From Centroscyllium fabricii (taxonomy: Eukaryota): a stretch of 64,000 nt of DNA. Shown in pieces: positions 7,290 to 59,643 of the stretch. Both the position numbers and the translations under genes were made by a program. Where the stretch lies: contig JBNRSN020000016.1 in assembly GCA_051313645.2 (NCBI GenBank), positions 80,104,001 to 80,168,000 of the forward strand, in the 5' to 3' direction. The notes under the pieces are model-generated. The model was not told where the DNA came from, did no database searches, and saw only the letters and a program-made list of their open reading frames with translations. The number at the start of each line of letters is the position of its first letter. The first letter of the stretch is position 1.

Positions 7290-7324
<35 letters not shown>

Positions 7325-20034: not shown

Positions 20035-20322
20035 TGTGGTAATCATATTACCAGTGTACATAGTTGGGTTACACCACAGACCAGTGTGTATAGTGGCTTG
20101 GTGTATTGTATGGGGTATTGTGTATAAGAACACTGTTGTGAGGTCAGGTCAGCCACACCTCTAACTCCTCCCCTCAGGTGAGAGCCTTACAGGTGAGGTC
20201 TGCCCTGCCCCCAGTCATTCTGTACTCGATGTTCAACTGGAGACTAGCGCCATCTTTAAGTTATTAAAAGCCTATAGTTAAGGTAACTACGGTACGTCAA
20301 TTTTAATAACTTAATTTTTCAA

Positions 20323-22406: not shown

Positions 22407-22636
22407 TGTGACCGAAATAACGACCTCGTGGACGAGTAGTTAGAAGGGTGAAACAAGACGGCTTTTATTCGCTAAATGGTGGACATGCACCAGCTGGTCG
22501 ACCGTCCCCAGGAATGGCTGGGGGATGGGAGACGGCCGCTTATATACCTCCTCCTGGGAGGGAGGAGTCGCGGGCGGAGCCAGCATGGGCATGTCCAGGT
22601 AATCGCACAACAGGTTATGTACAACATGAATATAGG

Positions 22637-27256: not shown

Positions 27257-27375
27257 TGGGTACGATTACAGAGATACATAACGGGGTGGGTATGTACAAG
27301 GAAACAGTGGTTTACCACATTCACCCCTTCTTTAAAACAAAAGTCCGGCGGGGTGAACGCGACAGTTTTTTTAAT

Positions 27376-30300
27376 TTACAAATTAAGTCGCTCCGGCGGC
27401 CTGGTGATCCTGGTTGAGCGTCGCACCGCTAGTGGTGTCAGCGGTCGTGGAGTGGCCGGTCGGGTTGGTTGCATCAATGGTGATGATGCCGGTTGGCGAG
27501 CGGTGGTTGATAACGTCGGTTGGTTTCTGGTTGGTGCCCTTGTAGCGACAGTAGGAGGCGCGCTCTCTCCCTCGTCGTCTGACTCTAGGGGGCGTGTACT
27601 GTGGAGCCATGCTGGAGGCCATGCCGTGCTGCCCGCAGGTGCCGGGTGGACGTACCGGGGTGCTGGGTTCTCGTGCCGGGGAGCGTACCTTGGCGCCGGT
27701 GGCCCGGGTGGAGTGGCTGGCCGCGGTGGCCCGGGTGGAGTGGCTGGCCGTCTTGGGTGCGCAGGCTGCTGGGCGGGCCTGGGTTTGGGGGCTCCCGCTG
27801 GCGCCAGGTCCTTGATGGACACGGTGTCCTCCCTCCCGTCGGGGTACGCCACGTAGGCGTACTGGGGATTGGCGTGCAGGAGGTGGACCCGTTCAACCAG
27901 GGGATCTGCCTTGTGACCCCTCACATGCTTCCGTAGTAGGACTGGCCCTGAGGATAGCAGCCACGATGGTAGCGAGGTCCCAGAAGCCGACTTCCTGGGG
28001 AAGGCAAAAAGTCGCTCGTGAGGGGTGGCATTAGTGGCCGTACACAGGAGGGACCGGATGGAGTGGAGCGCTTCAGGGAGGACGTCCTGCCAGCGGGAGA
28101 CTGGGAGGCCTTTAGACCGTAGGGCTAACAGGATGGCCTTCCAGACAGTGGCGTTTTCCCTCTCTACCTGTCCGTTCCCCCGGGGATTGTAGCTGGTAGT
28201 CCTGCTAGTCGCGATGCCTTTGGCTAGCAGAAACTGACGCAGCTCGTCACTCATAAAAGAGGCCCCCCGGTCGCTATGAATGTAGCTGGGGTAGCCGAAC
28301 AGAGAGAAGATGCTGTGGAGGGCTTTGATGACAGTGGCCGAGGTCATGTCCGGGCAGGGGATGGCGAAGGGGAAGCGGGAGTACTCGTCAATTACGTTGA
28401 GGAAGTACACGTTCCTGTTGAAGGAGGGAAGGGGTCCTTTAAAATCGACGCTGAGTCGTTCAAAGGGGCGGGTGGCCTTGATCAGGTGCGCCCGGTCTGG
28501 CCGATAGAAGTGCGGCTTGCACTCCGCACAGACCTGGCAATTGCTGGTCAGGGTCTTGACCTCCTCGATGGAGTAGGGGAGGTTGCGGGACTTCACAAAG
28601 TGAACCAACCTGGTGACCCCCGGGTGGCAGAGGTCATTGTGAAGGGTTTGGAGGCGGTCTGTCTGTGCGCTGGCACATGTACCGCGGGATAGGGCGTCTG
28701 GGGGTTCGTTAAATTTCCTGGGCCTGTACAAGATATCGCAATTGAACGCGGAGAGTTCAATTCTCCACCTTAATATCTTGTCGTTCTTGATTTTACCCCG
28801 CTCTTTGTTGTTGAACATAAAAGTGACTGAGCGTTGGTCAGTCAGCAGGGTAAATCGCTTGCCGGCCAGGTAGTGCTTCCAGTGACGCACTGCTTCAACG
28901 ATGGCTTGGGCCTCCTTCTCAACGGAAGAGTGACGGGTCTCGGGGCCCTGGAGGGTACGCGAGAAGAAGGCCACGGGTCTGCCCGCCTGGTTAAAGGTGG
29001 CGGACAGGGCAAAGTCCGTGCATCGCTCTCTACCTGAAATGGGACGGACTCGACCACGGCGTGCATCGTTGCCTTCGCAATGTCGTCCTTAATGCCGCAG
29101 AATGCCGTGCGGGCATCTGCTGACAGAGGGAATGAGGTGGATTTAAGCAGTGGGCGAGCTTTGTCTGCATAATTGGGGACCCACTGGGCATAATAGGCAA
29201 AGAAACCCAAGCACCGTTTAAGGGCCTTGGGGGAGTGGGGGAGGGGGAGCTCCATGAGGGGGCGCATGCGGTCCGGGTCGGGACCGATGACCCCATTCTC
29301 CACAACACTGCCGAGGATGGCAAGGCGGGTGGTACTGAACACACATTTTTCAGTGTTATACGTCAGATTGAGTGTTTTGGCGGTGTGGAGAAATTTCTGG
29401 AGGTTGGCGTCATGGTCCTGCTGATCGTGGCCGCAGATGGTCACGTTATCGAGGTACGGGAAAGTGGCTCGCAGCCCGTACTGATTGACCATTCGGTCCA
29501 TCTCCCTTTGGAAGACCGAGACCCCATTCGTGACGCCAAACGGAACCCTGAGGAAGTGGTAGAGGCGACCGTCAGCCTCGAAGGCAGTATAGAGACGGTC
29601 CTCTGGGCGAATGGGAAGCTGGTGATATGCGGACTTCAGATCTATGGTGGAGAACACCCGGAACTGCGCGATCTGATTCACCATGTCCGCTATCCGGGGG
29701 AGGGGGTATGCGTCTAGCTGGGTGAACCGATTGATGGTCTGACTATAGTCCACTACCATCCGGTTCTTCGCTCCGGTTTTCACCACCACTACCTGCGCCC
29801 TCCAGGGGCTATTACTGGCCTCGATAACCCCCTCCTTCAGGAGGCGCTGCACCTCGGACTTGATAAAGTCCATGTCCCCAGCACTGTAGCGCCTACTCTT
29901 GGTGGCGACGGGCTTGCAGTCTGGGGTGAGGTTGGCAAAGAGCGAGGGAGGGGCGACCTTAAGGGTCGAGAGGCCACAGGTAGCGCGCCGGGGGTGCTGC
30001 GCCGAGCACCGGTTGCTGACCGTGAGCGAGGGAAGGGGCCCACCGTACGCCATGGTAATGCTTTGGAGATGGCACTGGAAGTCCAGACCCAATAGTAATG
30101 GAGCGCAGAGCTGCGGCAGCACGAAAAAGCTAAAGTTACTAAAGTGCACGCCCTGCACCTTTAGAGCCTCTGCGCAACGCCCGGAGACGTCCGCAGATTC
30201 TGATTTGGAAGCCATTGAAATCTTTTGGCTCGCTGGCATAACCTTAAGGGAGAGGCGCTTTACTATCTCAGGATGAACAAAACTCACCGTGCTCCCACTG

Positions 30301-31355
30301 TCGAAAAGGCACACCACGTCCTGTCCGTTCACTCCCACCGGCATCATCGATTTCCCGAGTGATTGAGCCTTATTCTGGTCCAGAGTCACCGATGCCAATA
30401 TTGGATCAGACGATTCCTCTTGATCCGACGAGAAGTCCTCCGGGGCCGGTTCCCAAGATGGCTGCCACCATGCGGTGTACTGCGGAGGGGGTGGCTGGGT
30501 CCAATATGGTGACTGCTGCCACGCGGGGTGCTGAGTGGGGGATGGTTGAGTCCAATATGGCTGCCCCCATGTTCCACACGCGGCGCTGCCCGGTTTCGGT
30601 TTAGGGGCTGTGATCGCCTTACAGACTTTGGCGTAATGTCCCTTCTTTCCACATTTTGAGCAGGCCGCTTCTCTTGCCGGGCAGCTGCGTCTCGGATGCT
30701 GAGACTGCCCGCAGAAGTAACATTTTGCCGTCTTAGCATGAGCGGCTGCGATCATTTCTTCCGCCGGCCGTTGTGCCGGCGCTGTCCAAGATGGCGGGGC
30801 TGGGCCCGTATAGTTGCCGGAGTATGACGATAGGTTTAGTGAGGCCATGTCCAGCGCATTGCCCAGATCCGCTGTTGCCTGCAGGTCAAGGCCGTTCTGT
30901 TCTAACAGCCTCTGTCTGATATAGTCCGACCTGAGGCCTGTAACATATGCGTCTCTGATTAGACTGTCCACATGGATCTGGGCCGATTGCGCTCTGCAGT
31001 TACAGACCCGAGATAGCACTCTCAGCGCTCTTAAAAATTCCACGCTGGACTCACCGGGTTGCTGCTTCCTGGTGGCTAGGATGTGTCTGGCGTGGATGAT
31101 ATTGGGTGCCCGGTTGTACTCTGCCTTGAGGATCCTGATAGCATCCAAGAATGATGATGCGTCCATGATCATAGAGTACACCTGAGGGCCCACCCGGGCG
31201 TTGCGGAGCCGCCGTTTGTCCTCTTCGGTCCTGACGACCGCTGCGTTCGCTCTCAGGTACGCATCGAAACAGTCATACCAGTGCGAGAATGTGTTTGATG
31301 CGCCTGGTGTCCGGGGATCCAATTCAAACGTTGCTGGCTTGAGCACCGCGTCCAT
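27376..31355 (-). pseudogene. Element B single gag-pol ORF with one 1-nt deletion near 29019
   Basis: ORF 28842-31361 runs gag, knuckles, LFDSGS and RT (YLDN) in one frame. ORF 27376-28974 has RNase H and integrase. Confidence 0.92.
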
Positions 31356-31672
31356 CTTCAAAATTTAGCGAATAAAATTGTGACCGAAATAACGACCTCT
31401 TGGACGAGTAGTTAGAAGGGTGAAACAATACGGCTTTTATTCGCTAAATGGTGGACATGCACCAGCTAGTCGACCGTCCCCAGGAATGGCTGGGGGATGG
31501 GAGACGGCCGCTTATATACCTCCTCCTGGGAGGGAGGAGTCGCGGGCGGGGCCAGCATGGGCATGTCCAGGTAATCGCACAACAGTTTATGTACAACATG
31601 AATATAGGTACGATTACAGAGATACATAATGGGGTGGGTATGTACAAGGAAACAGTGGTTTACCACAGTATC

Positions 31673-32417
31673 ACCAACTCCCGATCCGGAAAGCCGACTG
31701 CCAGTACACCGCCTTCGAGGCGAACGGTCGGCTCTACCACTTCCTCCGGGTCCCCTTCGGCGTGACCAACGGAGTGTCGGTATTCCAGAGGGAGATGGAC
31801 CGTATGGTTGACCAAAACTGGTTGCAGGCCACCTTCCCCTACCTGGACAACGTGACCATCTGCAGCCATGACCAGCAGGAACACAATGCCAACCTGGCCA
31901 AATTTCTCCACGCGGCGAAACGGCTCGATCTCACTTACAATAAAGACAAGTGCGTCTTTAATACAGATCGGCTCGCCATCCTCGGATACGTGGTGGAAAA
32001 CGGGGTCCTCAGCCCCGACCCACAGCGTATGCGCCCCTTACAGGAACTGCCCCTACCTCACAACCCCAAAGCCCTGAGGAGATGTCTGGGATTTTTCTCC
32101 TATTACGCGCAATGGGTTCCCCAGTTTGCGGATAAGGCCAGACCGCTCCTCAAGGCTGACGTCTTCCCTCTCGCGGTAGAAGCCCAAACGGCGTTCGCCC
32201 TGATTAAGGAAGACATTATCAAGGCGACCATGCACGCCGTTGATGAGTCCATCCCTTTCCAGGTGGAGAGTGACGCTTCGGACTTTGCCCTTGCCGCCAC
32301 CCTGAATCAGGCAGGCAGGCCCATAGCGTTTTATCCCGCACCCTACAGGGACCCGAAACTCACCACTCTGCAGTGGAAAAGGAGGCCCAGGCCATCGTGG
32401 AGGCCGTGCGCTACTGG
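31673..32417 (+). pseudogene. Element A RT and RNase H
   Basis: PFGVTNG, YLDN (31840-31851), ESDASD. Confidence 0.9.
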
Positions 32418-32506
32418 TAAACATAACATAGAAACATAGAAAATAGGTGCAGGAGTAGACCATTCGGTCCGTCGAGCCTGCACCGCCATTCAACACGCTC
32501 ATGGCT
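32418..32506 (-). mobile_element. Short second CR1-type 3' tail abutting the full-length CR1
   Basis: ACATAGAA repeats followed by GCAGGAGTAGACCATTCGG, a different tail repeat from the adjacent GAACACA(A/G) tail. Confidence 0.65.
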
Positions 32507-32828
32507 GAACACAAGAACACAAGAACACAGGAACACAGGAACACAGGAACACAAGAACACAAGAACTAGGAGCAGGAGTAGGCCAATCGGCCCCCCGAGC
32601 CCACCCCCCCACCCATCAAGATCATTTCTGATCCTACCCTAACCTTCATACCACTATCACCCTTCTCCCACCCAAAGAACCGTGTGATCTCCTGGGAGAG
32701 GCGAAAAACCGGATAAAAACCCTGGTCCAATTTGGGAAAAAAAATCTGGGAAATTCCTCTCCAACCCCAATCCAGGCGATCGAAACTTGTCCAGGAGATC
32801 ACTCAGGTCTTACTATACTAACCATAAC

Positions 32829-35723
32829 TCAGGTCCACTTCCCTGCCCGCTCCCCGTAACCCCTAATTCCCTTGTCTGCTAAAAAACAGTCTATTTCGGT
32901 TTTAAATTTATTTAATGTTCCCGCTTCCACAGCTCCCTGAGGCAGTGAATTCCATAGATTAACCACCCTCTGGGTGAAGAAGTTTCTCCTCATCTCAGTT
33001 TTAAAAGAGCCCCCCCTTATTCTAAGACTATGCCCCCTAGTTCTAGTCTCCCCGATCATTGGAAACATCCTTGGCGCATCCACCCGATCAAGGCCCCTCA
33101 CGATCTTATACGTTTCAATAAGATCGCCTCTCATTCTTCTGAACTCTAAAGAGTAGAGTCCCAACCTACTTAACCTTTCCTCATATGTCAACCCCCTCAT
33201 CGCTGGAATTAACCGTGTAAACCTTCTCTGCACTGCCTCCAAGGCAAGTACATCCTTTCTTAAGTATGGACACCAAAACTGTACACAGTATTCCAAATGC
33301 GGTCTCACCAATACTGTGTACAGCTGCAGCAAGACCTCCCTTCTTTTATACTCTATCCCCCTAGCAATAAAGGCTAAGACTCCATTGGCCTTCCTAATCA
33401 CTTGCTGCACCTGCATACTAACTTTCTGTGATTCATGCACTAATACCCCCAAGTCCCTTTGCGTTGTATTACCACGCAGCTCCTCCCCATTTAGAAAATA
33501 ACTTGCTCTATGATTTTTTTTTCCAAAATGTATAACCTCACATTTATCAGTATTAAATTTCATCTGCCAAATTGCTGCCCAATCACCTAGCTTATCTATG
33601 TCCTTTTGCAGGCTTTTTCTGTCCTCCTCACTCCCTGCTTTTCCTCCCATTTTTGTGTCATCTGCAAACTTTGATATATTACACTTGGTCCCCTCCTCCA
33701 AATCATTTATATAGATTGTAAACAGCTGGGGTCCCAGCACCGACCCCTGCGGAACACCGCTAGTCACCGATTGCCATCCCGAGTATGAACCATTTATCCC
33801 CACTCTCTGCTTCCTGTTTGAAAGCCAATCCTCCACCCATGCTACTATATTTCCCCCAATCCCATAATTTTTTATTTTAAGCAATAGCCTCTTATGTGGC
33901 ACCTTGTCAAAAGCCTTTTGGAAGTCCAAGTATACCACATCCACCGGTTCCCCTTTATCCACCCGAGATGTTACTTCCTCAAAGAATTCGAGCAAATTAG
34001 TTAAACATGACTTCCCCTTCGTAAAACCATGCTGAGTCTGTCCGATTAAGTTATGTTTATCCAAATGCCCAGTCAGTGTTTCTTTAATAATGGTCTCTAA
34101 CATTTTAGCCACCACAGATGTTAGACTAACCGGTCTATAGTTACCAGCCTTCTGTCTACTACCCTTTTTAAATATAGGTGTTACATTAGCCATTTTCCAA
34201 TCCACCGGGACCCTTCCTGACTCCAGGGAGTTTTGGAAAATTATCACCAATGCATCTACAATCCCCACCGCTATTTCTCTCAAGACCCTAGGATGTAATC
34301 CATCAGGCCCAGGGGATTTATCCGCCTTAAGTCCCATTAATTTACCTAATACCATCTCCTTAGTGATCTTAATAGTGTTTAACTCCTCCATTCCTATAGC
34401 CCCCTGTTTGTCCAGCGTTGGAATATTTTTAATGTCTTCTACGGTAAAGACTGATACAAAATATTCGTTTAATGCTTTTGCCATCTCCATGTTCCCCACC
34501 AACAAATTCCCAGTCTCACCCTCCAATGGACCAACATTCACCTTAGCCACCCTTTTTCTTTTTATATAACTATAAAAACTCTTGCTATTAGTTTTTATGT
34601 TTTTCGCTAAATTACTTTCATACTCTATTTTCCCCTTCTTAATTAATCTCTTTGTTATTTTTTGCTGACTTTTAAATGCTTCCCAATCTTCTATCTTCCC
34701 ACTGTATCTGGCTACCTTATATACCCTTGCCTTTAGCCGAATACTATCCTTTATTACTTTACTTAGCCACGGTTGGCTGTCCTTTCCTATACCCCTTTTT
34801 TTCTTCAGTGGAATGTATTTTTCTTGAAGGTTGTACACTAACTCCTTAAAAGTACACCACTGCTCATGTACCGTCTTATTCTTTAGTCCGTTATCCCAAT
34901 CTACTTTAATCACTTCTGTTCTCATACCTTCATAATCTCCCTTGTTTAGACTAAGTACCCTGGTTTTAGTTTCGAATTGCTCCCCCTCTAGTTGAATATG
35001 GAATTCGACCATATTGTGGTCACTCGTTCCAAGAGGGTCCCTAACTATGACATTTTTAATTAATCCTGCTTCATTACACAGGACCAGATCCAAGATTGCC
35101 TCCCCCCTTGTCGGTTCAGTGACATACTGTTCTAAGAACCCATCCCTAATACACTCTATAAACTCTTCCTCTAGTCTACCCTGCCCAGTTTGATTTGCCC
35201 AGTTGATATGAAAGTTAAAGTCCCCCATGATTACAGCAGTTCCTTTATTACATGCTTCAACTATTTGCTGATTTATGTTTTGACTAACATAGTCACAACT
35301 ATTTGGAGGTCTATAGATTACACCCACTAGTGTTTTTTTCCCCTTATTATTCTCTATCTGTACCCAAGCTGTTTCACTATCCTGATCCTTTGACCCAATA
35401 TCCTTCCTTTCTATTGCAGTTATTCCATCCTTTATTAAAAAGGCCACCCCACCTCCTTTTCTTTCCTGTCTGTCTTTTCTGATTGTCAAGTAACCCTCTA
35501 TGTTTAACTCCCAGTCCTGATCACCCTGCAGCCATGTTTCCGTAATGGCCACAATATCATACCTATACGTGCTTAATTGTACCGTCAATTCATCTATCTT
35601 ATTGCGAATACTACGTGCATTCAAATAAAGCACTTTCACATGTGTTTTACTACCCTTTATTTCTGTTTTTGCCCCTTTTACGACTATACCCTTATCTTCA
35701 TACATTCTGTATCCTCCTAGCAC
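32829..35723 (-). CDS. CR1 ORF2p (APE endonuclease + reverse transcriptase)
   Basis: Open 964-aa frame: YLNARSI, ITETW, GDFN, SDH; QHGF, YLDFQKAFD, GVPQGSVLGP, FADD. The start codon is uncertain (first ATG at 35705). Confidence 0.93.
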   Translation of the reverse strand: MLGGYRMYEDKGIVVKGAKTEIKGSKTHVKVLYLNARSIRNKIDELTVQLSTYRYDIVAITETWLQGDQDWELNIEGYLTIRKDRQERKGGGVAFLIKDGITAIERKDIGSKDQDSETAWVQIENNKGKKTLVGVIYRPPNSCDYVSQNINQQIVEACNKGTAVIMGDFNFHINWANQTGQGRLEEEFIECIRDGFLEQYVTEPTRGEAILDLVLCNEAGLIKNVIVRDPLGTSDHNMVEFHIQLEGEQFETKTRVLSLNKGDYEGMRTEVIKVDWDNGLKNKTVHEQWCTFKELVYNLQEKYIPLKKKRGIGKDSQPWLSKVIKDSIRLKARVYKVARYSGKIEDWEAFKSQQKITKRLIKKGKIEYESNLAKNIKTNSKSFYSYIKRKRVAKVNVGPLEGETGNLLVGNMEMAKALNEYFVSVFTVEDIKNIPTLDKQGAIGMEELNTIKITKEMVLGKLMGLKADKSPGPDGLHPRVLREIAVGIVDALVIIFQNSLESGRVPVDWKMANVTPIFKKGSRQKAGNYRPVSLTSVVAKMLETIIKETLTGHLDKHNLIGQTQHGFTKGKSCLTNLLEFFEEVTSRVDKGEPVDVVYLDFQKAFDKVPHKRLLLKIKNYGIGGNIVAWVEDWLSNRKQRVGINGSYSGWQSVTSGVPQGSVLGPQLFTIYINDLEEGTKCNISKFADDTKMGGKAGSEEDRKSLQKDIDKLGDWAAIWQMKFNTDKCEVIHFGKKNHRASYFLNGEELRGNTTQRDLGVLVHESQKVSMQVQQVIRKANGVLAFIARGIEYKRREVLLQLYTVLVRPHLEYCVQFWCPYLRKDVLALEAVQRRFTRLIPAMRGLTYEERLSRLGLYSLEFRRMRGDLIETYKIVRGLDRVDAPRMFPMIGETRTRGHSLRIRGGSFKTEMRRNFFTQRVVNLWNSLPQGAVEAGTLNKFKTEIDCFLADKGIRGYGERAGKWT

Positions 35724-35812
35724 ACTTCGATTTTCAGATTCCCCACTGAATCCCTGCTCTAATTCATTTTCCCCAGTCGTTATTATCTCTCTTAAAACCT
35801 CCCCCCCGCTAC

Positions 35813-36766
35813 TTAGTTTAAAGACCTCTCTATTGCCCTAGTTATATGATTTGCCAGGACCCTAGTCCCAGCACGGTTCAGGTGAAGTCCGTCCCAACGG
35901 AACAGCTCCCCCCTGTCCCAGTACTGATGCCAGTGTCCCAAGAAACCAAACCCACTTTTCCCACACCAGTCTTTGAGCCACGCATTTAGCTCTCTAATTT
36001 TATTTACCCTCGCCAATTTAGCCCGTGGCTCAGGTAGTAATCCGGAGATTATTACCCTGGAGGTTCTGTTTTTTAATTTGTTCCCTAACAACTCAAACTC
36101 CCTTAACAGAACCTCTTTCCTCGTCCTTCCTATGTCGTTGGTACCGACATGGACCACGACCACTGGATCCTCCCCCTCCCACTGCAAATTTCTCTCCAGC
36201 CCAGCAGAGATGTCCTTAACCCTAGCACCGGGCAGGCAACACAGCCTTCGGGACTCCTTCTGTCGGCTACAGAGAACCCTATCTATCCCCCTAATAATAC
36301 TATCCCCTACCACTACAACATTTCCTCTAACTCCTCCCTCTTGAATGGCCCCCTGATCCACGGTGCTGTGGCCAGGTTGCTCATCCGTCCCACAGCCCCC
36401 GTTCCTGTCCTCACAGTGAGTAAGAGCCTCGATCCTGTTTGGCAAGCACAAGGGCTGTGGCTCCTGCAGCATCTCCTCCTGGATCCCCCTACCTGCCTCG
36501 CTCATGGACACACCTTCCTGTCCTTGTTCACTAACTTCAGAATTATTTAAACTGGTTGGTGTGACCATCCCCCGGCACATAATATCCAGGTAATACTCCC
36601 CCTCCCTGATGTACCGCAGCGTATGAAGCTGGGTCTCCAGCTCATCAATACGGAGCAAGAGTTCCTCTAGCCTCAAACACTTACTGCAGGTGTAGGGATC
36701 GACGGCATCAACGGTGCCTACGCATTCCCACATCTGGCAGTATTGGCACATCACCTGCTCGTCCAT
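35813..36766 (-). CDS. CR1 ORF1p (N-terminal Cys motif, coiled coil, SGNH esterase)
   Basis: CxxC..CxxC, heptads LEELLLRIDELETQL, GDSIIR, VHVGTND, DGLH. Confidence 0.92.
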   Translation of the reverse strand: MDEQVMCQYCQMWECVGTVDAVDPYTCSKCLRLEELLLRIDELETQLHTLRYIREGEYYLDIMCRGMVTPTSLNNSEVSEQGQEGVSMSEAGRGIQEEMLQEPQPLCLPNRIEALTHCEDRNGGCGTDEQPGHSTVDQGAIQEGGVRGNVVVVGDSIIRGIDRVLCSRQKESRRLCCLPGARVKDISAGLERNLQWEGEDPVVVVHVGTNDIGRTRKEVLLREFELLGNKLKNRTSRVIISGLLPEPRAKLARVNKIRELNAWLKDWCGKSGFGFLGHWHQYWDRGELFRWDGLHLNRAGTRVLANHITRAIERSLN

Positions 36767-37040
36767 CTTATATAATTAATTTTAGTTCCTAGTTAAGAAT
36801 CCTCTACACGGATTAACTATATTGAAAACACACCCCTATTTATTTAAGCTTACCACTTATAAACGGGAAAGTACTCACCCCAGCAATGAATCACCTACTA
36901 GCTTGGCTGACTGGTGGATAAATGAGTATGCTCAGCCTGTCCGGTCCACAGCTCCTCTTCAATGCGTGGTAAACCTGTGAACCTGTGAAGAAGGGAAGGA
37001 AAGGGAAAAACAGACAGAAACACAGCAGACACCAGAGAAC

Positions 37041-37222
37041 CTCCCAGTGTCCGAACTCCCAGTGTCCGAACTCCCAGTGTCCGAACTCCCAGTGTCCGAA
37101 CTCCCAGTGTCCGAACTCCCAGTGTCCGAACTCCCAGTGTCCGCACTCCCAGTGTCCGCACTCTCCGCCGCCGCACTCTCCGCCGCCGCACTCTCCGCCG
37201 CCGCACTCTCCGCCGCCGCACT
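37041..37222. repeat. 15-bp tandem arrays in the CR1 5'UTR (CCGAACTCCCAGTGT grading into CCGCACTCTCCGCCG)
   Basis: Seen directly, about 12 units. Confidence 0.9.
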
Positions 37223-37410
37223 CCGCGCAGATGCACTAGGTCCCGCCCCTTTAATATCCGTTTTTTAAATTCTTGTTTGGCTTTTTCTTTTTAATTTCTT
37301 TTTACCCCAAACTCTCTTAAATACACAAGTTAATGAACTTCTGTAACTTTCCCAAAAAGTTTAACCTTCTTTCAGAAACCACTCACACAGCTAATGGACA
37401 GAACTTTTCA

Positions 37411-38783
37411 GGTGTCATTACCTGGCCGGTAAGTGTTTTACCCTGCTCACCGACCAACGGTCGGTCGCGTTTATGTTTAACAATAAACAAAAGGGTAAAA
37501 TCAAGAATGATAAGATCCTGCGGTGGTGGATCGAGCTCTCGACTTACGAGTACGACATTCTTTACCGACCAGGCAAACTCAACGAACCCCCGGACGCACT
37601 GTCCAGGGGAACGTGCGCCAGTGCCGAGCTGGACCGGCTGAAGGAACTCGACGATCGCCTCTGCCACCCGGGTATCACCAGACTTGCCCATTTCGTTCAA
37701 TCCCGTAGCCTCCCCTACTCCATCACGGAGATCAAGGCTATGACCCGAGAGTGCCCTGTTTGCGCCGAGTGCAAACCCCAATTTTACAGGCCAGACACGG
37801 CGCACCTCATCAAGGCCACCCGCCCCTTTGAACATCTGAGCGTGGACTTCAAAGGCCCCCTCCCCTCCACCGACCATAACTCGTACTTCCTCACGGTCGT
37901 GGACGAGTTCTCCCGCTTCCCCTTCGCCTTCCCCTGCCCAGATATGATGAGCGCAACGGTGGTAAGACACTTCACCACGCTGTTCCCCATTTTCGGACTC
38001 CCCAGCTACATCCATAGCGACCAGGGGTCGTCGTTCATGAGCGACGAACTGCGTCAGTTTCTGCTTCAGAAAGGGGTTGCCTCAAGCAGAACGACCAGTT
38101 ACAACCCCCGGGGGAACGGCCAGGTAGAAAGGGAGAACGGGATCATCTGGAAGGCGGTCAGCCTGGCCCTGAAGGCCAGAGGCCTCCCAGTGTCCCGTTG
38201 GCAGGTAGTCCTCCCAGACGCGCTCCACTCCATCCGCTCTCTGCTGTGTACGGCTACAAACGCCACACCTCATGATTTATTATTTTCCTTCCCCAGGAAG
38301 TCGACTTCGGGGACGGCACTCCCACCGTGGCTCACGATGCCGGGGCCGGTCTTACTTAGGAAACATGTCCGCGGCCATAAGACCTGCCCCCTGGTGGAAA
38401 AGGTGCAGCTGCTGCACGCCAACCCGCAGTATGCCTACGTGCAGTTCCCGGACGGGCGCGAGGACACAGTTTCCATCAGAGACCTAGCGCCCGCTGGGAG
38501 CACTAGCGCAGAGCCCCTGGTCGAGCCTCAGCCCGACCAGCCACCGCCTACTGAACACTGGCCTGCATACCGACCACCATCTACCGAATACTGGCCTACA
38601 CACACGCACACACCGGGGCCCCCGACACTATCGGCTGAGGACCCAGGGCCGGACGCCACACCGCAGGCACGGTTGCCGGAGGACCCGACCCCATCACCAC
38701 AACCGGCACCAGCGCCGCTACCGGAACCCCGGAGGTCTTCACGGCAGACACGACCACCGGAGAGACTCATTGAGAACTGCTGA
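37411..38783 (+). pseudogene. Element A RNase H end and integrase
   Basis: DALSR, CHPG..CPVC, SVDFKG, HSDQG, GQVEREN. Confidence 0.9.
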
Positions 38784-39449
38784 TACGGACACATAAAAAT
38801 GTTTTTGCACTGCTCATTGATCGGTTGTGTTCCATTCACCCCGCCGGACTCATTTTCAAAGAAGGGGTGAATGTGGTAATCATATTACCAGTGTACATAG
38901 TTGAGTTACACCACAGACCAGTGTGTATAGTGGCTGGGTGTATTGTATGGGGTATTGTGTATAAGAACACTGTCGTAAGGTCAGGTCAGCCACACCTCTA
39001 ACTCCTCCCCTCAGGTGAGAGCCTTATAGGTGAGGTCTGCCCTGCCCTGCCCCCAGTCATTCTGTACTCGATGTTCAACTGGAGACTAGCTCCATCTTTA
39101 AGTTATTAAAAGCCTATAGTTAAGGTAACTACTCGTCTTTGTATTATTGACGATACGTCAACATGCAGGGTAGGTAAATTGGAGATACTAAAAAAAAAAA
39201 TTGCCCCTGAGTATGTGTGTGAGATATAATTCTTAGAGTTGGGGGTGTCAGGGGATATGGGGAGAGGGTAGGAGGGGGGTGCTGGGGTTTGGATTATCAG
39301 CCATGATCTCGTCAAAATGGCGGAGCAGGCTCGAAGGGCCTAATGGCCGACTCCTGCTCCTATCTTCTGTGTTTCTGTGTAATCAGCCTGGCACATCTTC
39401 TTTCAGACAGTACCGCCTCAAGATTGACAATCACATATAAAGAAAAAAA

Positions 39450-46359: not shown

Positions 46360-49300
46360 TGTAGCGTGGTCGCTAACTTAATTAAAGACGACTCGTAGTT
46401 ACCGTTAATACAAGGCTTTTAATTAATAACGAATGGAGCTAATCTCCTCGGCAGATCACATACAGGAATGAAAGGGGCTGGGTCAGACCACACCTTTATA
46501 GTGCTCCCACCTGGGGGGAGGAGTCGGGGGTGTGGCTGACCTGGCTCCCAGCAGCATCTTTGCACACAGGTATACAACAATGGTAACCCATATAAGGGTT
46601 ACCCATATAAGGGTTACCACATTCACCCCTTGTTAAAAACTTTGAGTCCGGGGGGTGGGGGGTGAATGTATCGAACAGTTCGTGATAAGTCTCTCCGGCG
46701 GTCGCGTTTGTCTTGCGGACCGCCGGGGTTCCGATGTTGGTGGTGATGCCCCCATGGCCGAATAGCCCACCTTCGTCGGTGCTGTAGTTTCAGGACGTGG
46801 TGGGTTCTGCTGGACCTCGTCTGGTGCATCGGCGGGGAAACTCGGGGCCCATCTTGTGTCTGATGGTAGGTCGACCTGCTGGCCAGCAGGAGGCGCTGTG
46901 GCGGTGTTGCCGGCCGGGGCCAGGTCCCTGATGGACACGGTGTCCTCACGCCCGTCTGGGAACTGCACAAAGGCATAGTGCGGGTTGGCGTGTAGGAGCT
47001 GTACCTTGTCCACCAGGGGGTCCGTCTTGTGGCACCGAACGTGCCGCTTAAGGAACACCGGCCCAGGGGTCGTCAGCCATGGTGGGAGCGCCGTCCCCGA
47101 AGTTGACTTCCTGTTGAAAGAAAAAACAAGATCGTGCGGGGTGGTATTAGTAGCTGTACATAATAACGACCTAATAGAGTGCAGCGCGTCTGGGAGGACT
47201 GCCTGCCAATGGGACACTGGAAGGCCTCTGGACTTGAGGGCCAGGGTGACCGCCTTCCAAATGATCCCATTCTCCCTTTCTACCTGGCCATTCCCCCGGG
47301 GGTTGTAACTGGTCGTTCTGCTCGTGGCAACCCCTCTCTGGAGCAGAAACTGACGCAGTTCATCGCTCATGAACGATGACCCCCGGTCGCTATGGATGTA
47401 GCTGGGGAGACCGAAGATGGCGAACAGCGTGGTGAAGTGTTTCATCACCGTTGCACTCGTCATGTCTGGGCAGGGGAAGGCGAAGGGGAAGCGGGAGAAC
47501 TTATCCACTACCGTGAGGAAGTATGAGTTGCGGTCAGTGGAGGGGAGGGGGCCTTTGAAGTCTACGCTGAGGCGTTCAAAGGGGCGGGTGGCCTTGATGA
47601 GGTGCGCCGTGTCTGGCCGGAAAAAGTGGGGTTTGCACTCGGCGCAGACAGGGCAATCTCGGGTCATAGCCTTGATCTCCGTGATGGAGTAGGGGAGGCT
47701 ACGGGATTTGACAAAATGGGCGAGTCTGGTGACACCCGGGTGGCAGAGGCGGTCGTGGAGGTCCTTCAGCCGGTCTAGCTGGGCACTGGCGCACGTTCCC
47801 CTGGACAGTGCGTCCGGGGGTTCATTGAGTTTACCTGGTCGGTAAAGAATGTCGTACTCGTAAGTCGAGAGTTCGATCCGCCACCGCATGATCTTATCAT
47901 TCTTGATTTTACCCCGTAGTTTATTGTTAAACATAAACGCCACCGACCGTTGGTCGGTGAGCAGGGTAAAACGCTTACCGGCCAGGTAATGACGCCAGTA
48001 GCGCACGGCCTCCACAATGGCCTGGGCCTCCTTTTCCACTGCTGAGTGGCGAGTTTCGGGTCCCTGTAAGGTGCGGGAGAAAAATGCTACGGGCCTGCCT
48101 GCCTGATTCAGGGTGGCAGCAAGGGCAAAGTCCGAAGCGTCACTCTCCACCTGGAAAGGGATGGATTCATCAACAGCGAGCATGGTCGCCTTGATAATAT
48201 CTCCTTTTATCTTTTCGAATGCTGTTTGAGCTTCTATAGAAAGAGGGAAGACGGCAGCCTTGAGGAGTGGTCTAGCCTTGTCTGCGAACTGCGGGATCCA
48301 TTGTGCATAGTAGGAGAAAAATCCTAGACATCTCCTTAAGGCTTTGGGGTTGTGAGGTAAGGGCAGTTCTAGCAGGGGTCGCATACGCTGTGGGTCGGGG
48401 CCGAGGAGCCCGTTCTCCACCACGTATCCGAGGATGGCGAGCCGGGTTGTATTAAAGACACATTTGTCTTTGTTATACGTAAGGTCCAGCTTAGCCGCCG
48501 TGTCAAGGAATTTGGCCAGATTGGCATCGTGGTCCTGCTGGTCGTGGCCACAGATGGTCACGTTGTCCAGGTAAGGGAAGGTGGCCTGCAAGTCATTTTG
48601 ATCAACCATACGGTCCATCTCCCGCTGGAACACTGACACTCCGTTGGTCACGCCAAAGGGGACCCGGAGGAAGTGATAGAGCCGACCGTTCGCCTCGAAG
48701 GCGGTGTAGGGGCGGTCAGCTTTCCGGATCGGGAGCTGGTGATACGCCGATTTAAGGTCGATCGTGGAGAACACCTTGTACTGGGCGATTTGATTGACCA
48801 TTTCCGAGATGCGGGGAAGGGGGTAGGCGTCGAGCCCGGTGTAGCGGTTGATAGTCTGGCTGTAATCGATAACCAGCCGTTGTTTATCGCCAGACTTCAC
48901 CACTACAACTTGGGCGCGCCAGGGGCTGGTGCTGGCTTCAATAATCCCCTCCTTTAGCATCCGCCCGACCTCCGACCTGATAAACGTGCGGTCCCCCTCG
49001 CTGTACCGCCGACTCTTAGTGGCGATAGGTTTGTACTTCGGATCGAGGTTGGCGAACAGCGAGGGGGGATCGATTTTCAGGGTGGAGAGGCCGCAGGCCG
49101 GGGTCCGCTTTGGGAGGAGATTGTCCCGGCTACTGAGGGTGAGTGGGGGAAGGGTCCCGCCGAACTCCATTGTCACACTCCTGAAGTGGCACTGGAAGTC
49201 CAGACCTAGTAAGGCTGGGGCACACAACTGCTGGAGGGTATACAATTTAAAATTACGGTACACGCATCCCTGGATGGTGAGCGTGACGGAGCAGTAGCCG

Positions 49301-51201
49301 GTGACGTCCGCGGTGTGGGACTGTGAAGCTAATGAGACTTGGTAGTTAGTGGGCAGGACCTGCAGTCCGAAGCGCCGCACTGTATTAGGGTGGATAAAGC
49401 TCTCGGTGCTGCCCGTGTCAAAAAGGCAGTTGACCGTGTGATCGTTGATTTTGATTGGCCTTATGGAGTTAGACAGGGTGTGGGGCTTGTCCTGGCTAAC
49501 TGTAGGTCCGGTTGCCGCAGCCCCTGCTGAAGGGAGCTGCGCACAAAATGGCCGCCCCCCTGGCTTGCACATGGAGGGGCCCTGAAAACAAAATGGCCGC
49601 CCCCCTGGCTCGCACATGGAGGGGCTCTGAATACAAGATGGCCACCCCCCTGGCTCGCACGTGGAGGGGACCTGAATACAAGATGGCCGCCCCCCTGGCT
49701 CGCACATGGAGGGACCTGGGGAAGACAAGATGGCCGCCCCCTGGCTCGCACATGGAGGGACCTGGGGGAAGACAAGATTCTGTTTGTACAGAGCCCTGGC
49801 GTGCTGGCGGTGCCCGTGATCCGCACGCAGCGAACCGCGGTGAAGGCGCTGGCGGCGACCGTGGTTCGCACGCAGCTAACCGCGGTGAAGGCGCTGGCGG
49901 TGCCCGTGATTTGCACGCAGCGAACCGCGGTGAAGGCGCTGGCGGTGCCCGTGATCTGCACGCAGCGAACCACGGTGAACGCGCTAGCGGCGCCCGTGGT
50001 TCGCACGCAGCCGGCCGTGTAGGAGGGTCGCGTTCGGCTGGTCGCCGCTGCATCGAGGTGGGGGGGGGGCGCTTGCCGTCGGGATAAATTACTGCAAATG
50101 CAGCTTACCTGTTCCTGAGAGCTCTCACAGGCACTGTTGTACCTTTTTGGTGCTGCAGCTGGATTGGATCTGCAGACCTTTGAGAAGTGTCCCTTCTTGG
50201 AGCATTTGTCACAGGTCGCCGTCTTGGCTGGACACTATGCCCTGGGGTGCAATCCTTTGCCGCAAAAATAACAATGTTTATGCTTAGTGTCCGTGGTGGC
50301 TGTCGCGGCCATGGTGGGGCTCTCGATCCGTGGCGCCTGTTGGGTCGCGGCCCAAACGTTGTAAGCTTGGTAGCTGGTACCACCATACATCTGAGATTTG
50401 TTGCGGGCCCCTTCCACCGATTTTGCTAACGCGGTTGCCTCTTCAAAGGTCAGATTTTCCTTTTCCAGTAGCCTCTGACGTGCTACTGCGCATCTTAGTC
50501 CTGAGACGAAGGCGTCCCAGAGGAGGAGGTTTTCCTCCTGTATCATAGTCATTCCACCCTTACAGCCACAGGCCCGTATCATGCCCCGGAGCGCTTGCTC
50601 AAACTCGTCGTTTGACTCACCGGGTAGTTGAGGTCGGGTCGCTAGTAGGTGGCGGGCGTAGACCGTGTGCGCCGAGTGCTCGTAGTACCTCTTGAGGGTC
50701 GCCACCATTTCCACGTACGTTGTATGGTCCTCGATGAGGGTGAAAACCCTGCTGGAGATCTTGGATAGCAGTACTTGCAGTTTTTGCGCATCCGTTTCAG
50801 CCTTGGCGACTGCCATATAGGCCTCTAGCACTCTGAACCAGAGCTTGAAGGTGACCGGTGCCGCGGCATCCTGGGGGCTAATGTCCAGCTCCCGAGGCCT
50901 TACCGTGCTGCTCTCCATTGTAAAATTATTAATTAAAATTGTAGCGTGGTCGCTAACTTAATTAAAGACGACTCGTAGTTACCGTTAATACAAGGCTTTT
51001 AATTAATAAAGAATGGAGCTAATCTCCTCGGCAGATCACATACAGGAATGAAAGGGGCTGGGTCAGACCACACCTTTATAGTGCTCCCACCTGGGGGGAG
51101 GAGTCGGGGGTGTGGCTGACCTGGCTCACAGCAGCATCTTTGCACACAGGTATACAACAATGGTAACCCATATAAGGGTTACCCATATAAGGGTTACCAC
51201 A
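46360..51201 (-). mobile_element. Gypsy LTR retrotransposon C (Mag-like), young
   Basis: 262-bp LTRs at 46360-46621 and 50940-51201 with 2 mismatches. TSD AACCT (46355-46359 / 51202-51206). Confidence 0.96.
46633..50918 (-). pseudogene. Element C gag-pol: pol frame open (46633-49728), gag with TAG at 50235-50237 and two linker indels
   Basis: LFDTGS, YLDN (48562-48573), SDAS, HHCC, DDE; gag with two knuckles. Confidence 0.92.
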
Positions 51202-54163: not shown

Positions 54164-54662
54164 AGCGGGACAGAGTGGGCAGGTCAGTGAGGAGTAGGCA
54201 GGAGCGGGACAGAGTGGGCAGGTCAGGGAGGAGTGAGACAGATTGGGCAGGTTAGGGAGGATTGGGCAGGTTAGGGAGGATTGGGCAGGTTAGGGAGGAT
54301 TGGGCAGGTTAGGGAGGAGTGGGCCAGAGTGGGCAGGTCAGGGAGGAATGGGCAGGAGTGGGACAGAGTGGGCAGGTCAGGGCAGGAGTGGGACAGAGTG
54401 GGCAGGTCAGGGAGGAGTGGGACAGAGTGGGCAGGTCAGGGCAGGAGTGGGACAGAGTGGGCAGGTCAGGGCAGGAGTGGGACAGAGTGGGCAGGTCAGG
54501 GCAGGAGTGGGACAGAGTGGGCAGGTCAGGGAGGAATGGGCAGGAGTGGGCAGGTCAGGGAGGAATGGGCAGGAGTGGGCAGGTCAGGGCAGGAGTGGGA
54601 CAGAGTGGGCAGGTCGGCAGGAGTGGGACAGAGTGGGCAGGTCAGGGAGGAGTGGGACAGAG
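54164..54662. repeat. G-rich variant minisatellite (GGAGTGGGACAGAGTGGGCAGGTCAGG..), left part
   Basis: Seen directly; it continues after element D. Confidence 0.9.
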
Positions 54663-57600
54663 TGTGGTGAACCATTTAGTGTAGTTCACACTGTGTTATT
54701 ATTGTATATAGTTTGGGCTAATAAAGTTGTTCTTTTCTGTAAGCACCTGGACCAGCTGACCCCGCCTCCGGGTATGAGTATAAAGGAGGATGCTCCACCC
54801 ACCTGACTCTCATTCCGGGCAGGACTCATCGCGGACCAGGTCTTGTTCTTAGCGAATAAAAGCCTTTGATTACGATCCACGAAAGACTGGCGTGATTGAT
54901 TAGCGCATCAATTTTATTCGCTAAGATTTACAATGGATGATGAGCCAGGACAGAGCCAACAGCCAGCTGCACCAGACACCTGGAGATCGATCCTCAAGCC
55001 AAAGACTCTCGACCTCAACCCCCAGGCACCGAACGCTTCGAACGACTTCGAGCACTGGCTGAGCTGCTTCGAGTCGTTTCTGGTGGTGGCCGGAGTCAGC
55101 GATACACACAAGGGACGGGTCCTAGTCTCCTGCGTCAGTGGCAGGGTCTTTGTAATCATCAAGAACGCCACTGACTATGATGCAGCGTTGGAGCTGCTGA
55201 GGGCTCGGTACCTCCAGCCTGTCAACGCCGTCTACGCTCGCCATCTACTCGCCACGCGGAGGCAACAGCCTGGTGAGTCGAACGAGGAGTACCTGGAGAC
55301 TCTTCAGGCTCTCGCTCTGTGCTGCGAATGTGCACCCGTTAACGCCCAGGAGCACATGGACCTCCTCGTCCGTGATGCCTACGTGGCAGGAATCCGATCG
55401 GCCCCAGCGCGCACCCGCCTGCTCGAGCAGGATTTTTTGTCCCTGAACCAGGCGGTGAAGCTCTCCAACGCGGTGGATGGGGCCCTCCGCAGCCTGGATT
55501 CGTACACGGGGCACGGCTCCCACACGGTTTCCCCTGGGCCTTGGGACTCACGTTTAACGCCCTCGACGGCAACCGTGGCGGCCACGGCGCCATCCGGACA
55601 GCCAGCGCCCCTGAAATGCCATTTTTGTGGCCAAAAACGCCACCCACGAAGCTCCTGCCCAGCGAAGTCGGCATCGGGCTCCAGGTGTGGCAAGAAGGGC
55701 CACTTTGCGAAGGTCTACCGATCGGCCCCGGAATCTACAAAGAAAACGGCAGCAGCCTGCAATCTCTACGCCACAGAGTGGCCTCAGGTACCTGGCGCCC
55801 CCCAACAGCATTTTTTTAAACAACTATTACCTACCTTGCCTCGGGTGCGGCCTGCCTGCGCCATTTCCCGCATTCTGCCGTCTTCCTCTTCCGACGAAAC
55901 GTGGGCGCCGTCGCCATCTTTGGGGGGCGCGGCCTTCTTCATGCCTGGAATGACGCGAACGGGCGGCAGAGGCCCCACCCCATCACGTGACGCCGCCGTC
56001 TCCCTGCGTCACGTCAGCAGCGGCCCCCCCCCCCATCACGTGCCGAAGACCGAACGGGCGGCAGAGGCCCCGCCCCGTCACGTGACGCCGCCGTCTCTCC
56101 GCGTCACGGCAGCAGCGGTTCCTCCCCATCACGTGACGCCACCTTCGGAACGCGTCACGGCATCAGCGGTCCCGCCCCATCACGTGACGATGCCATCTTG
56201 GTGCAGGACGGCCTGCATACCTACAGCGGAGGGCCCGACGCCATCTTTGTATAGGAAGATTTTTAAAGCACCGGCTGCTGCAGCAACTAGTAACTTTAAA
56301 TCAACCTCAGTGGTTCTGGCAGCTGCAACAGACTACTCCAGACCACTTCAGCATCCGGGTGCTGCTGCTGCGCCGCGAGCCCTTCGGTCTTCCCGACGGC
56401 ATTCTCGGAGACTCACCCACCGGTCCGAAACACCACCGTGGCCCGCCGTGTGCGAATCACGGGCGCCGACACCAACCGCGGACCCTGCATCGCACAAGGG
56501 CCCCAGCGTGCACACCACACTTGCCTCTACGGCCCCATAACCCATCTCTTAATTTATCAACGATGACCACCCGGGTGGAGGGGCACCTCACCTGCTGTCT
56601 GTTCGACACTCGGAGTACGGAGAGCTTTATACACCCTGATACAGTGCGCCGTTATTCCCTCAGGGTTAGGCCCACGCATCGTAAAATCTCCCTCGCCGCC
56701 GAGTCCCAGACTGTGGACGTCATCGGCTGCTGTACAGTCACCATTACCGTGAAGGGGACGACATACCGCAATTTTCCACTGTACGTCCTCCCACAGCTCT
56801 GTGCCCGTGTTGCTTGGCCTGGATTTCCAGTGCCATCTGCCGAGCTTAACGATGGCGTACGGTGGTCCCCTGCCTCCTCTCATGGTCAGCAGCCATGACT
56901 GCCCTGCCTCACAACCACACTCCTCTTGCGGTCTGTCTACCTTGAAGATAGACCCCCCCCTCGCTGTTCGCCAACCTTGACCCTGACTGCAAGCCCATTG
57001 CAACCAAGAGTCGGCGATACAGCGCGGGGGACCGCACCTTTATTAAGGCAGAGGTTGCCCGGTTGATGCGGGAGGGCATCATCGAGGCCAGTAACAGCCC
57101 GTGGCGGGCCCAGGTGGTAGTGGTTAAGTCGGGCAACAAACAGCGCATGGTCATTGACTATATTCAGACCATTAACCGCTACACTGGGCTCGACACTTAT
57201 CCGCTTCCTAGGATAAATGATAGGGTCAACCAGATTGCCCAGTATAAGGTCTTCTCCACCATCGACCTTAAGTCGGCCTATCACCAGCTCCCCATCAGAG
57301 CTGAGGACCATAAATACACTGCCTTTGAGGCAAATGGGCGCCTTTTTCACTTCCTCCGGGTCCCCTTTGGGGTTACCAATGGAGTTTCGGTCTTCCAACG
57401 GGAGATGGACCGAATGGTTGACCAGTACCATTTGCAGGCCACATTCCCGTATTTGGACAATGTCACGATCTGCGGCCATGATCAGCAAGATCACGATGCC
57501 AATTTGGACAGGTTCCTCCGTACGGCCCAGCGTCTGAATCTCACTTACAATGAGGCTAGTTGGCTATCCTCAGCTACGTAATTGAGAACGGGGTCCTCGG

Positions 57601-59643
57601 TCCTGATCCCGAACATATGCGCCCCCTTCAGGAGCTGCCTCTGCCGCACTCCTCCAAATCTTTGAGGAGATGCCTGGGGTTTTTCTCGTATTATGCACAA
57701 TGGGTTCCCCATTATGCTGATAAGGCCCGGCCTCTCCTCAGAGCTACCTCCTTCCCGCTCCCATTAGAGGCCCAAATTGCATTTTCACATATTAAGCAGG
57801 ACATCATCAAGGCAACCATGCACGCTATTGATGAGTCTCTCCCCTTCCAGGTCGAAAGCGATGCCTCAGACTTCGCCCTGGCCGCCACCCTCAACCAGGC
57901 AGGCAGGCCCGTTGCTTTCTTCTCCCGTACCCTACAGGGCCCTGAAGTCCGCCACTCTTCAGTGGAAAAGGAGACACAAGCAATAGTGGAAGCAGTGCGC
58001 CACTGGCGCCACTATTTGGCCGCTAAGCGTTTTACCCTTCTTACTGACCAGTGGTCAGTAGCGTTTATGTTCCACCATAAACAGAAGGGTAAGATCAAGA
58101 ATGACAAGATCCTCAGGTGGCGGATCGAACTCTCCGCCTTTGAGTACGCATTCTGTACCGGCCAGGGAAGCTTAATGATCCCCCGGACGCCCTGTCTCTG
58201 CCACCCGGGGGTCACCAGGCTCGTTCACTTTGTCAAAACATGCAATCTCCCTTATTCCATTGCGGAGATCAAGGCGATGACGCAGGAGTGCCCTGTCTGT
58301 GCTGAGTGCAAGCCTCAGTTTTACAGGCCTGACAGGGCGCACCTCATCAAGGCCACCCGCCCATTCGAGCGCCTGAGTGTGGACTTCAAGGGTCCCCCTC
58401 CCCTCTACCAATCGTAACTCGTACATCCTCAGTGTGGTCGACGAGTTCTCCCGTTTCCCTTTTGCATTCCCATGCACAGATATGACGAGTGCAACAGTGA
58501 TAAAGCATTTTATCACGCTATTCGCCATTTTCGGCCTTCCCGGCTTCATACACTGCGACCGGGGGTCCTCTTTTATGAGCGACGAACTGCGTCACTTTCT
58601 GCTCGCGAGGGGGGTTGCCTCGAGCAGAACAACCAGTTACAACCCCCGGGGGAATGGCCAGGTAGAGCGGTTTAATGGGACCATCTGGAAGGCCATTTCT
58701 CTGGCCCTTCGATCCAAAGGCCTTCCAACCTCCCACTGGCAGGAGGTCCTCCAGGATGCGCTCCACGCTACTCGTTCCCTTTTGTGTACAGCTACCGGTT
58801 GCACTCCTCACGAGAGACTCTTCTCTTTCCACAGGAAATCGACTTCGGGGACGTCGCTGCCGACATGGCTTACCAATCTGGGGCCGGTCCTGCTTCGTAG
58901 ACATGTCCGGGGGCACAAGACGGACCCTCTTGTTGAACGTGTGCGCCTGCTGCATGCCAACCCTCAGTACGCTTACGTGGAGTACCCAGACGGGCGTGAG
59001 GATACCGTCTCGATTAGAGACCTCGCGCCCGCTGGAGACGTTCACGGGGAGTTGTTGGCGGAGCCCTTGCCCTCCCAGGTCGCACTTCCACAACAGGGGC
59101 CTACTTTTCATTCACCGGCGCACATTACATCGGGGCCCTTGCCACCTACAATGCACGACGGAGTTCATCACGTTGCTCAACCTCCGGCGGCTGCTACACC
59201 TCCACCAGATCTTCCTGCGTATGAACCTACTCTTCCACCGGTGGAGTCCCTGTGCACTTCGGGAGCTCCGTCAGCATCTTTTCCGATTGCGACTACTCCC
59301 GCTTTTTCTTGTGAATCGCCATTGCTTCGCAGGTCTTCTCGGTCTGTTCGACCTCCTCAAAGACTGATAACGCAGTGCTGATGTTCGCCCCGCGGGACTT
59401 GTTTTTTAAGGAAGGGGTGAATGTGGTGAACCATTTAGTGTAGTTCACACTGTGTTATTATTGTATATAGTTTGTGCTAATAAAGTTGTTCCTTTCTGTA
59501 AGCACCTGGACCAGCTGACCCCGCCTCCGGGTATGAGTATAAAGGAGGATGCTCCACCCACCTGACTCTCATTCCGGGCAGGACTCATCGTGGACCAGGT
59601 CTTGTTCTTAGCGAATAAAAGCCTTTGATTACGATCCACGAAA
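54663..59643 (+). mobile_element. Gypsy LTR retrotransposon D (Mag-like), end of the 3' LTR deleted
   Basis: LTRs 54663-54910 and 59422-59643 (last ~25 nt and right TSD missing). PPT AAGGAAGGGGTGAA. Confidence 0.93.
54933..59381 (+). pseudogene. Element D gag-pol with multiple frameshifts
   Basis: gag 54933-56540, LFDTRS, YLDN (57450-57461), RNase H and integrase 58377-59381. Confidence 0.9.

Follow-up and report, generated by a model that had tools for sequence, protein, structure and literature searches.

The YxDD motif of reverse transcriptases (RTs) is taught as invariant. Here we describe four long terminal repeat (LTR) retrotransposons, denoted A to D, that carry YLDN in its place and are located within a stretch of 64,000 nucleotides of the genome of Centroscyllium fabricii (assembly GCA_051313645.2, contig JBNRSN020000016.1, positions 80,104,001 to 80,168,000 of the forward strand; hereafter the window, to which all coordinates refer). 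Several described systems approach this one in different respects. Ty3 of Saccharomyces cerevisiae shares the domain order, and its D214N mutation affects the equivalent position: asparagine at the first two aspartates abolishes synthesis, whereas the D214N enzyme is active, with lower processivity, and the mutation is lethal for transposition (PMC5371799). There, however, the asparagine is a laboratory mutation in a tRNA-primed element, whereas here it is the natural state of more than 200,000 copies. The same substitution was engineered in Ty1, a member of the copia superfamily, where D211N lowers kpol 223-fold and shifts the preference to Mn, and where RNase H suppressors restore 5–10% of transposition, whereas altering either of the remaining two aspartates destroys polymerase activity (PMC2148107); in the elements described here, however, no RNase H residue tracks the asparagine independently. 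An earlier note on this DNA had stated that the change in Ty1 blocks transposition but leaves polymerisation, which is correct (PMC2148107) and applies to Ty3 as well (PMC5371799).

YVDN occurs naturally in the RTs of Cer7–Cer12, BEL/Pao elements of Caenorhabditis elegans; according to PMC554778, which cites Bowen and McDonald (1999), their activity had not been tested. These are likewise natural YxDN enzymes of LTR retrotransposons, but because they belong to the BEL/Pao superfamily and not to Gypsy, their motif is of independent origin, and the present Gypsy clade differs also in spanning several phyla and in switching between D and N. Natural asparagine at the last motif C aspartate is further known from working right-hand polymerases of viruses, namely, GDN in negative-strand viruses and ADN in birnaviruses, the latter said to lower activity (PMC9752661), but these are RNA-dependent RNA polymerases, not RTs. 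With regard to priming, Tf1, Tf2, Tj1 and the Tf1/sushi group have a primer site complementary to their own LTR RNA and employ no tRNA (PMC4600332). In those elements, the site pairs with the transcript's 5' end, which RNase H releases, whereas here it pairs with a box that ends in a poly(A)-signal-like hexamer; furthermore, Tf1/sushi chromoviruses carry a chromodomain after the integrase, whereas Pfam Chromo had no match in C, B, or the related proteins P0006 and P0040.

Our literature search found no Gypsy clade with YxDN (Repbase, subscription journals and supplements, which may contain the clade or the motif, were outside this search) and, on self-priming, no paper title or opening of an abstract pointing to the present clade. 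The role of the last aspartate has been a question ever since the Ty1 and Ty3 mutants proved able to polymerise but not to transpose. The present clade comprises numerous natural sister enzymes with different residues at just this position but otherwise similar active sites, as well as a family that multiplied to very high copy number with asparagine; together, these render testable both the role of the acid and whatever permits its loss. Where a YxDN RT is annotated as dead, an element that may rank among the most abundant of the genome would be misjudged.

Motif C of the RT translates as FPYLDNVTIC in A, B, C and D alike, and all four codon strings lie where the earlier note had located them, as confirmed by translation:

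57450..57461, + strand: YLDN, RT motif C of element D, the main finding (codons and translation)
31840..31851, + strand: YLDN, RT motif C of element A (codons and translation)
29445..29456, - strand: YLDN, RT motif C of element B (codons and translation)
48562..48573, - strand: YLDN, RT motif C of element C (codons and translation)

The motif pairs residue for residue with YLDD of the Ty3 RT (PDB 4OL8), N146 of the representative protein P0001 being the alignment partner of the last D. A fifth Gypsy element of the window, E, which falls outside the clade, provides the contrast also noticed previously, with YLDD at 24711 (+) and a TGG-type primer site at 22917.

The asparagine is the rule in the family. 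Exact patterns for DN, DD, DS and GN (in the last of which the first essential aspartate is removed), all in one codon context, were counted over the 7.2-Gb assembly, with zero hits to each reversed pattern. In the narrow context, DN occurs 178,090 times, DD 225, DS 388 and GN 684 times; a broader pattern yields 212,430 DN versus 299 DD. Thirty copies chosen by the integrase alone comprise 26 with YLDN, one each with YLDH and YRDN, two that are unreadable, and no DD, so that the possibility that the family carries YLDD, on which the earlier claim could have foundered, is not borne out. DD copies are no commoner than control mutants that are unable to help and rank below both DS and GN, although this shortfall may be due in part to the CpG that the D codon often creates.

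The RT that harbors this motif is under purifying selection. Between A and C, the ratio of nonsynonymous to synonymous substitution rates (dN/dS) is 0.13 over 91 codons around the motif; the other five pairs among A to D (90–91 codons) show 80–84% protein identity with saturated synonymous sites. Post-insertion decay of the motif, already discounted in the earlier note, is ruled out by the genome counts, the integrase-picked copies and the selection on the RT. YLDN is the selected, normal state of a hugely multiplied family.

The prevalence of asparagine extends beyond this genome. Among the best 120 of 1,494 protein hits, 100 have YxDN and 20 have YxDD; the named hosts among these 120 are rays, catsharks, corals, an anemone and Trichuris, and cluster look-ups add Pocillopora and Porites (DN) as well as Cydia moths (DD). 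Further relatives come from metagenomes. The nearest named relatives would place the host, probably, among cartilaginous fishes. Elements of the clade appear in assemblies of bacterial metagenome-assembled genomes (L153–L162), and database proteins carry bacterial labels; most likely, these occurrences are contamination with animal DNA. In a search of 50%-identity representatives, 147 of the 149 new proteins cover the motif, and DN is present in 29 of 79 at at least 40% identity and in none of 68 below that level.

In a FastTree phylogeny of 195 rows covering query residues 20–320, with the motif column removed and the outgroup limited to 20, 175 rows form one clade with support of 100, in which the early branches are mostly DD; window element C belongs to a 12-row, all-DN group together with fish sequences, and the crown group to which the window's elements belong has N in 75 of its 78 rows. 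The last position of motif C is N in 117, D in 57 and Y in one of the 175 clade proteins, whereas the motif A aspartate is kept in 173 and the first motif C aspartate in all 175; the RNase H acids are kept as well. The minimum number of D/N changes on this motif-blind tree is 18, compared to 42–55 for shuffled labels. All seven clusters checked are uniform in their D/N state among the members covering the site; a 205-member cluster is DD in 9 of 9 covering members, and close sisters of opposite state exist (P0024 with N, P0040 with D). These patterns indicate that the D/N state is heritable within families and switches between them, with only two residues of like shape being allowed.

Pfam domains in the open frame of C and in B follow the order protease, RT, RNase H, integrase, which is that of Ty3/Gypsy (Metaviridae), and the RT is nearest to Ty3/Gypsy RTs in sequence and fold. 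The Ty3 RT is the best solved relative by sequence (E 4e-49) and the second by fold, and an AlphaFold model of the RT and RNase H of C (pLDDT 92) has the cauliflower mosaic virus (CaMV) and Ty3 RTs as its top fold matches. A, B and C are bounded by TG...CA LTRs with perfect 5-bp duplications and display the traits by which Gypsy elements are recognized (TG...CA LTRs, a polypurine tract and a target duplication of 4–5 bp); the 3' end of D is lost. Two typical Gypsy traits, the YxDD motif and the tRNA primer site, are not present in A to D, but such variants do not exclude membership. Pfam matched no BEL/Pao family, yielding instead Gypsy-type RT_RNaseH, rve and a two-knuckle gag, whereas a triple zinc finger gag is typical of BEL/Pao; the tree was built without Tf1, sushi or BEL rows. 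We classify A to D as members of an old, animal-wide clade of short (~4.7–5.2 kb), env-less Ty3/Gypsy retrotransposons. The clade may correspond to an animal Gypsy clade that has already been named (Mag, CsRn1, Gmr1, Tor and others); for one candidate name, Selfy, the literature gave no match. It is not named in the available parts of PMC3601003 or PMC13524379.

In each of A to D, the site following the 5' LTR is perfectly complementary, over 13–15 nt, to a box in the LTR of the same element, and no TGG-type tRNA primer start is apparent (no tRNA library was searched). The elements and their primer regions are as follows:

54663..59643, + strand: element D, a Gypsy LTR element (gag, protease, RT, RNase H, integrase) with several frame changes and a shortened 3' LTR, within a tandem repeat
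54847..54861, + strand: LTR box of D, with an AATAAA-type signal at its end; complements the primer site perfectly over 15 nt
54912..54926, + strand: primer site of D, 1 base past the LTR end, without a TGG start
46360..51201, - strand: element C, with LTRs at 50940-51201 and 46360-46621 and a perfect 5-bp target duplication; its gag carries a stop and a frame change
46636..49875, - strand: open frame of C encoding protease, RT, RNase H and integrase, the Gypsy order (Pfam)
50997..51009, - strand: LTR box of C, 13-nt complement of the primer site
50926..50938, - strand: primer site of C
20035..39160, + strand: element A, with LTRs at 20035-20299 and 38872-39160 and a perfect 5-bp target duplication
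20256..20314, + strand: LTR box (20256-20269) and primer site (20301-20314) of A, 14-nt perfect complement
22407..31667, - strand: element B, located within A and flanked by a perfect 5-bp target duplication; its RNase H carries a frameshift, and E lies within its 3' LTR
31363..31449, - strand: LTR box (31435-31449) and primer site (31363-31377) of B, 15-nt perfect complement
22637..27256, + strand: element E, Gypsy, the contrast outside the clade, YLDD 24711-24722, TGG-type primer site 22917

The poly(A)-signal-like hexamer forms the end of the LTR box, and GCC or CC usually comes next; the two arms change together across families. The box lies 24–87 nt upstream of the primer site, and in A to D its orientation is such that a cut past it would leave a 3' end facing U5. 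Among 90 fetched loci, 74 cover the motif and 38 have a readable upstream region; a self-complement of at least 11 nt is present at 28 of the 31 DN loci (one assembly, with about three families, contributes 16 of them), at all 5 DD loci and at both loci with a damaged motif, compared to shuffle maxima of 7–10. The remaining 7 of the 12 DD loci lack sufficient upstream sequence for the primer site to be read. One DD locus with the self-complement, L156, is only 48% identical to the RT of C and hence represents a distant part of the clade. Folding z-scores for the whole region are weak (-0.6 to -2.9), and the case for pairing is made by the length of the arms and the changes in both of them. The pairing suggests self-priming similar to that of Tf1; it could also mask the 5' poly(A) signal.

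The earlier note had linked YLDN to this unusual priming, and as a rule, this link does not hold. Because all five readable DD members share the tRNA-less, self-pairing site, the predicted primer geometry is a trait of the whole clade, independent of N, and obligate coupling of N to tRNA-less priming is excluded. None of the readable loci combines DN with a tRNA primer site, so that there may be a one-way link, in which the priming mode permits the asparagine. The claim regarding the motif itself stands: it is real, selected and abundant.

Taken together, we consider it likely that the RT works in a clade in which the last position of YxDD accepts either D or N; polymerase activity of the YLDN enzyme is what the sequences lead us to infer, and the lineage evidently functions without the supposedly essential last acid. 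Mechanistically, judging from the biochemistry of Ty1 and Ty3, the two kept aspartates would hold the catalytic metals, whereas the third side chain would position a metal, the primer end or pyrophosphate, for which the same-shaped asparagine might suffice at some cost in rate or processivity. This cost might be tolerated owing to a permissive background common to the clade, including remodelled finger and motif B residues and a short genome to copy, such that a D/N switch would require no separate compensating change. Candidates for this background are the residues in which both D and N members differ from the outgroup throughout the clade, namely, R28, Q30, S47 with the inserted T49, G120-V121 (motif B), G151 and D158 (P0001 numbering). 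Compensation specific to asparagine did not emerge: no column tracks D/N on independent pairs, in a test of 1,176 column states on 7–8 pairs that has little power, and position 298 in RNase H, strong by Fisher's test (101/117 vs 10/57), fails on independent pairs, its association arising through ancestry. Thus, of the earlier proposal of a naturally functional DN-type RT with compensating changes, the functional part is supported by the selected, abundant family state, whereas no compensating residue was found by the weak pair test.

Whether a YLDN enzyme moved recently, as the earlier note concluded from element C, is a separate matter. The C LTRs indeed differ at only 2 of 262 positions (the mismatches being 7/264 in A, 7/288 in B, 3/222 in D and 4/271 in E). 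However, C is a broken copy and has a twin that includes the flank, is 99.6% identical and lies 2.4 Mb away on the same contig (~82.52 Mb; L032 and L009), which marks it as a segmental or assembly duplication and not a new insertion, so that C taken by itself is no proof of movement by a YLDN enzyme. Each of the four window copies is defective, through splits (A is interrupted by B in its RT and by a CR1-type long interspersed nuclear element, LINE, in its RNase H), frameshifts or a stop, and hence none by itself proves a working enzyme. The claim of movement is carried by the genome-wide counts. If most copies are close to 4.9 kb, the YLDN family possibly fills about 1 Gb, or about one-seventh of the 7.2-Gb assembly (212,430 x ~4.9 kb), a rough estimate that is inflated by shortened copies and duplicated segments and misses mutated motifs.

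Forty DN copies, sampled by their position along the first 2 Mb of a contig, contain 28 LTR-like pairs. Of these, 24 are true pairs with an A/T-rich primer site behind them and 4 are false; in the 18 scorable copies, a perfect 5-bp duplication is present in 14 and a self-complement of at least 11 nt in 16. The sampled LTR pairs are mostly 1–5% divergent. Open frames of at least 1,400 codons hold 29 of the 150 best RT hits; their spread of 1,410–1,550 codons in sister copies is probably explained by the copy number of a 45-nt array. Such in-frame 45-nt repeat arrays lie between gag and protease at 21145-21632 in A and 49529-50027 in C.

Several observations weigh against a working YLDN enzyme or limit what can be said of it. 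The same D-to-N change abolishes transposition in Ty1 (PMC2148107) and Ty3 (PMC5371799), and a compensating residue was not identified here. None of the 40 sampled copies has identical LTRs (the median divergence, ~2.4%, is calculated with the 4 false pairs), and a frame of 1,400 codons is present in just 2 of the 40, so that the burst of the family may be over. Present expression is not evidenced: the matches were to run contigs only, which carry no information on transcript level, strand or ends, and included 2 short pieces from the sole declared RNA run, and a scan of viral contigs gave no match. The failure of DD revertants to spread fits neutrality and, equally, a benefit of N. Finally, long branches, the use of FastTree and an outgroup of only 20 proteins from few lineages limit the inference of the direction of the switches, and the sampling is biased towards the DN query.

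Asparagine might be not merely accepted but positively favoured, a possibility that we regard as rather unlikely. A slower or pyrophosphorolysis-poor polymerase could suit a short self-made RNA primer, by giving RNase H more time for the primer cut and reducing back-excision, or could limit harm to the host; self-priming would then be the precondition and N a later refinement. The confinement of N to the self-pairing clade in the representative search, its persistence in the crown group even though a single transition restores D, and the ~320-fold reduction of pyrophosphorolysis in Ty1 D211N (PMC2148107) all speak for this idea. However, the DD members have the same primer geometry, sisters as close as P0024 and P0040 differ in state, and DD families, such as the 205-member cluster, are multi-copy as well. 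Similarly unlikely is the broader proposal that the active site was remodelled, rendering the third acid optional, that asparagine was repeatedly favoured for priming on the element's own RNA, and that a two-aspartate RT drove the expansion to ~1 Gb.

It is quite improbable that the YLDN elements are non-autonomous and copied in trans by the YxDD enzyme of rare revertants or of another Gypsy family such as E, even though none of the four window copies is intact, the genome also contains YLDD Gypsy elements, and the change abolishes transposition in Ty1 and Ty3. The RT of a passenger would be expected to decay, whereas this one is held under strong purifying selection, which argues against such a role, and the other catalytic residues are kept across animal phyla. 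DD copies are fewer than control mutants, and the 20 DD copies examined contain no young DD family and no helper subfamily: they are at most 97% identical to each other and, where a DN neighbour was at hand, about as near to DN copies. Two of eight fetched DD-pattern loci belong to an unrelated element. The genome also contains an older subfamily of the clade (L183, L185, L187 and L188), with RT identity of 53–62%, LTRs that are 88–95% alike and the same type of primer site, but this subfamily, from which DD copies were fetched, is also represented by DN copies at no fewer than 5 sites within the first 3.1 Mb of a contig. Least probable of all is that the protein in fact contains aspartate, through A-to-I editing of the Asn codon in RNA or deamidation after translation: a single A-to-I change at the first base would be read as Asp, and the site is virtually restricted to D and N, but packaged edited RNA would yield DD insertions, yet DD is below the control background, and asparagine before valine or isoleucine deamidates slowly.

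The window contains additional features of note. E in the 3' LTR of B, and B in the RT gene of A, form a three-deep nest (22407-31667), E having a 4-bp duplication with one mismatch; E may resemble CsRn1, and its primer site may be of the tRNA-Trp type. D is embedded in a G-rich tandem repeat with 10-, 19- and 29-nt periods (54109-54660 and 59647-60015). The CR1-type LINE in A (32418-37415, -) has an open 1,002-codon endonuclease-RT frame (32832-35837), the RT motif being FADD, and an ORF1 with a GDSL esterase domain (35816-36775), together with a 15-nt tandem repeat near 37040-37200. Outside these elements, a 248-codon frame (9049-9792) has no Pfam match, and an open 468-codon frame (5940-7343, +) encodes a DDE_Tnp_4 (PIF/Harbinger-type) transposase.
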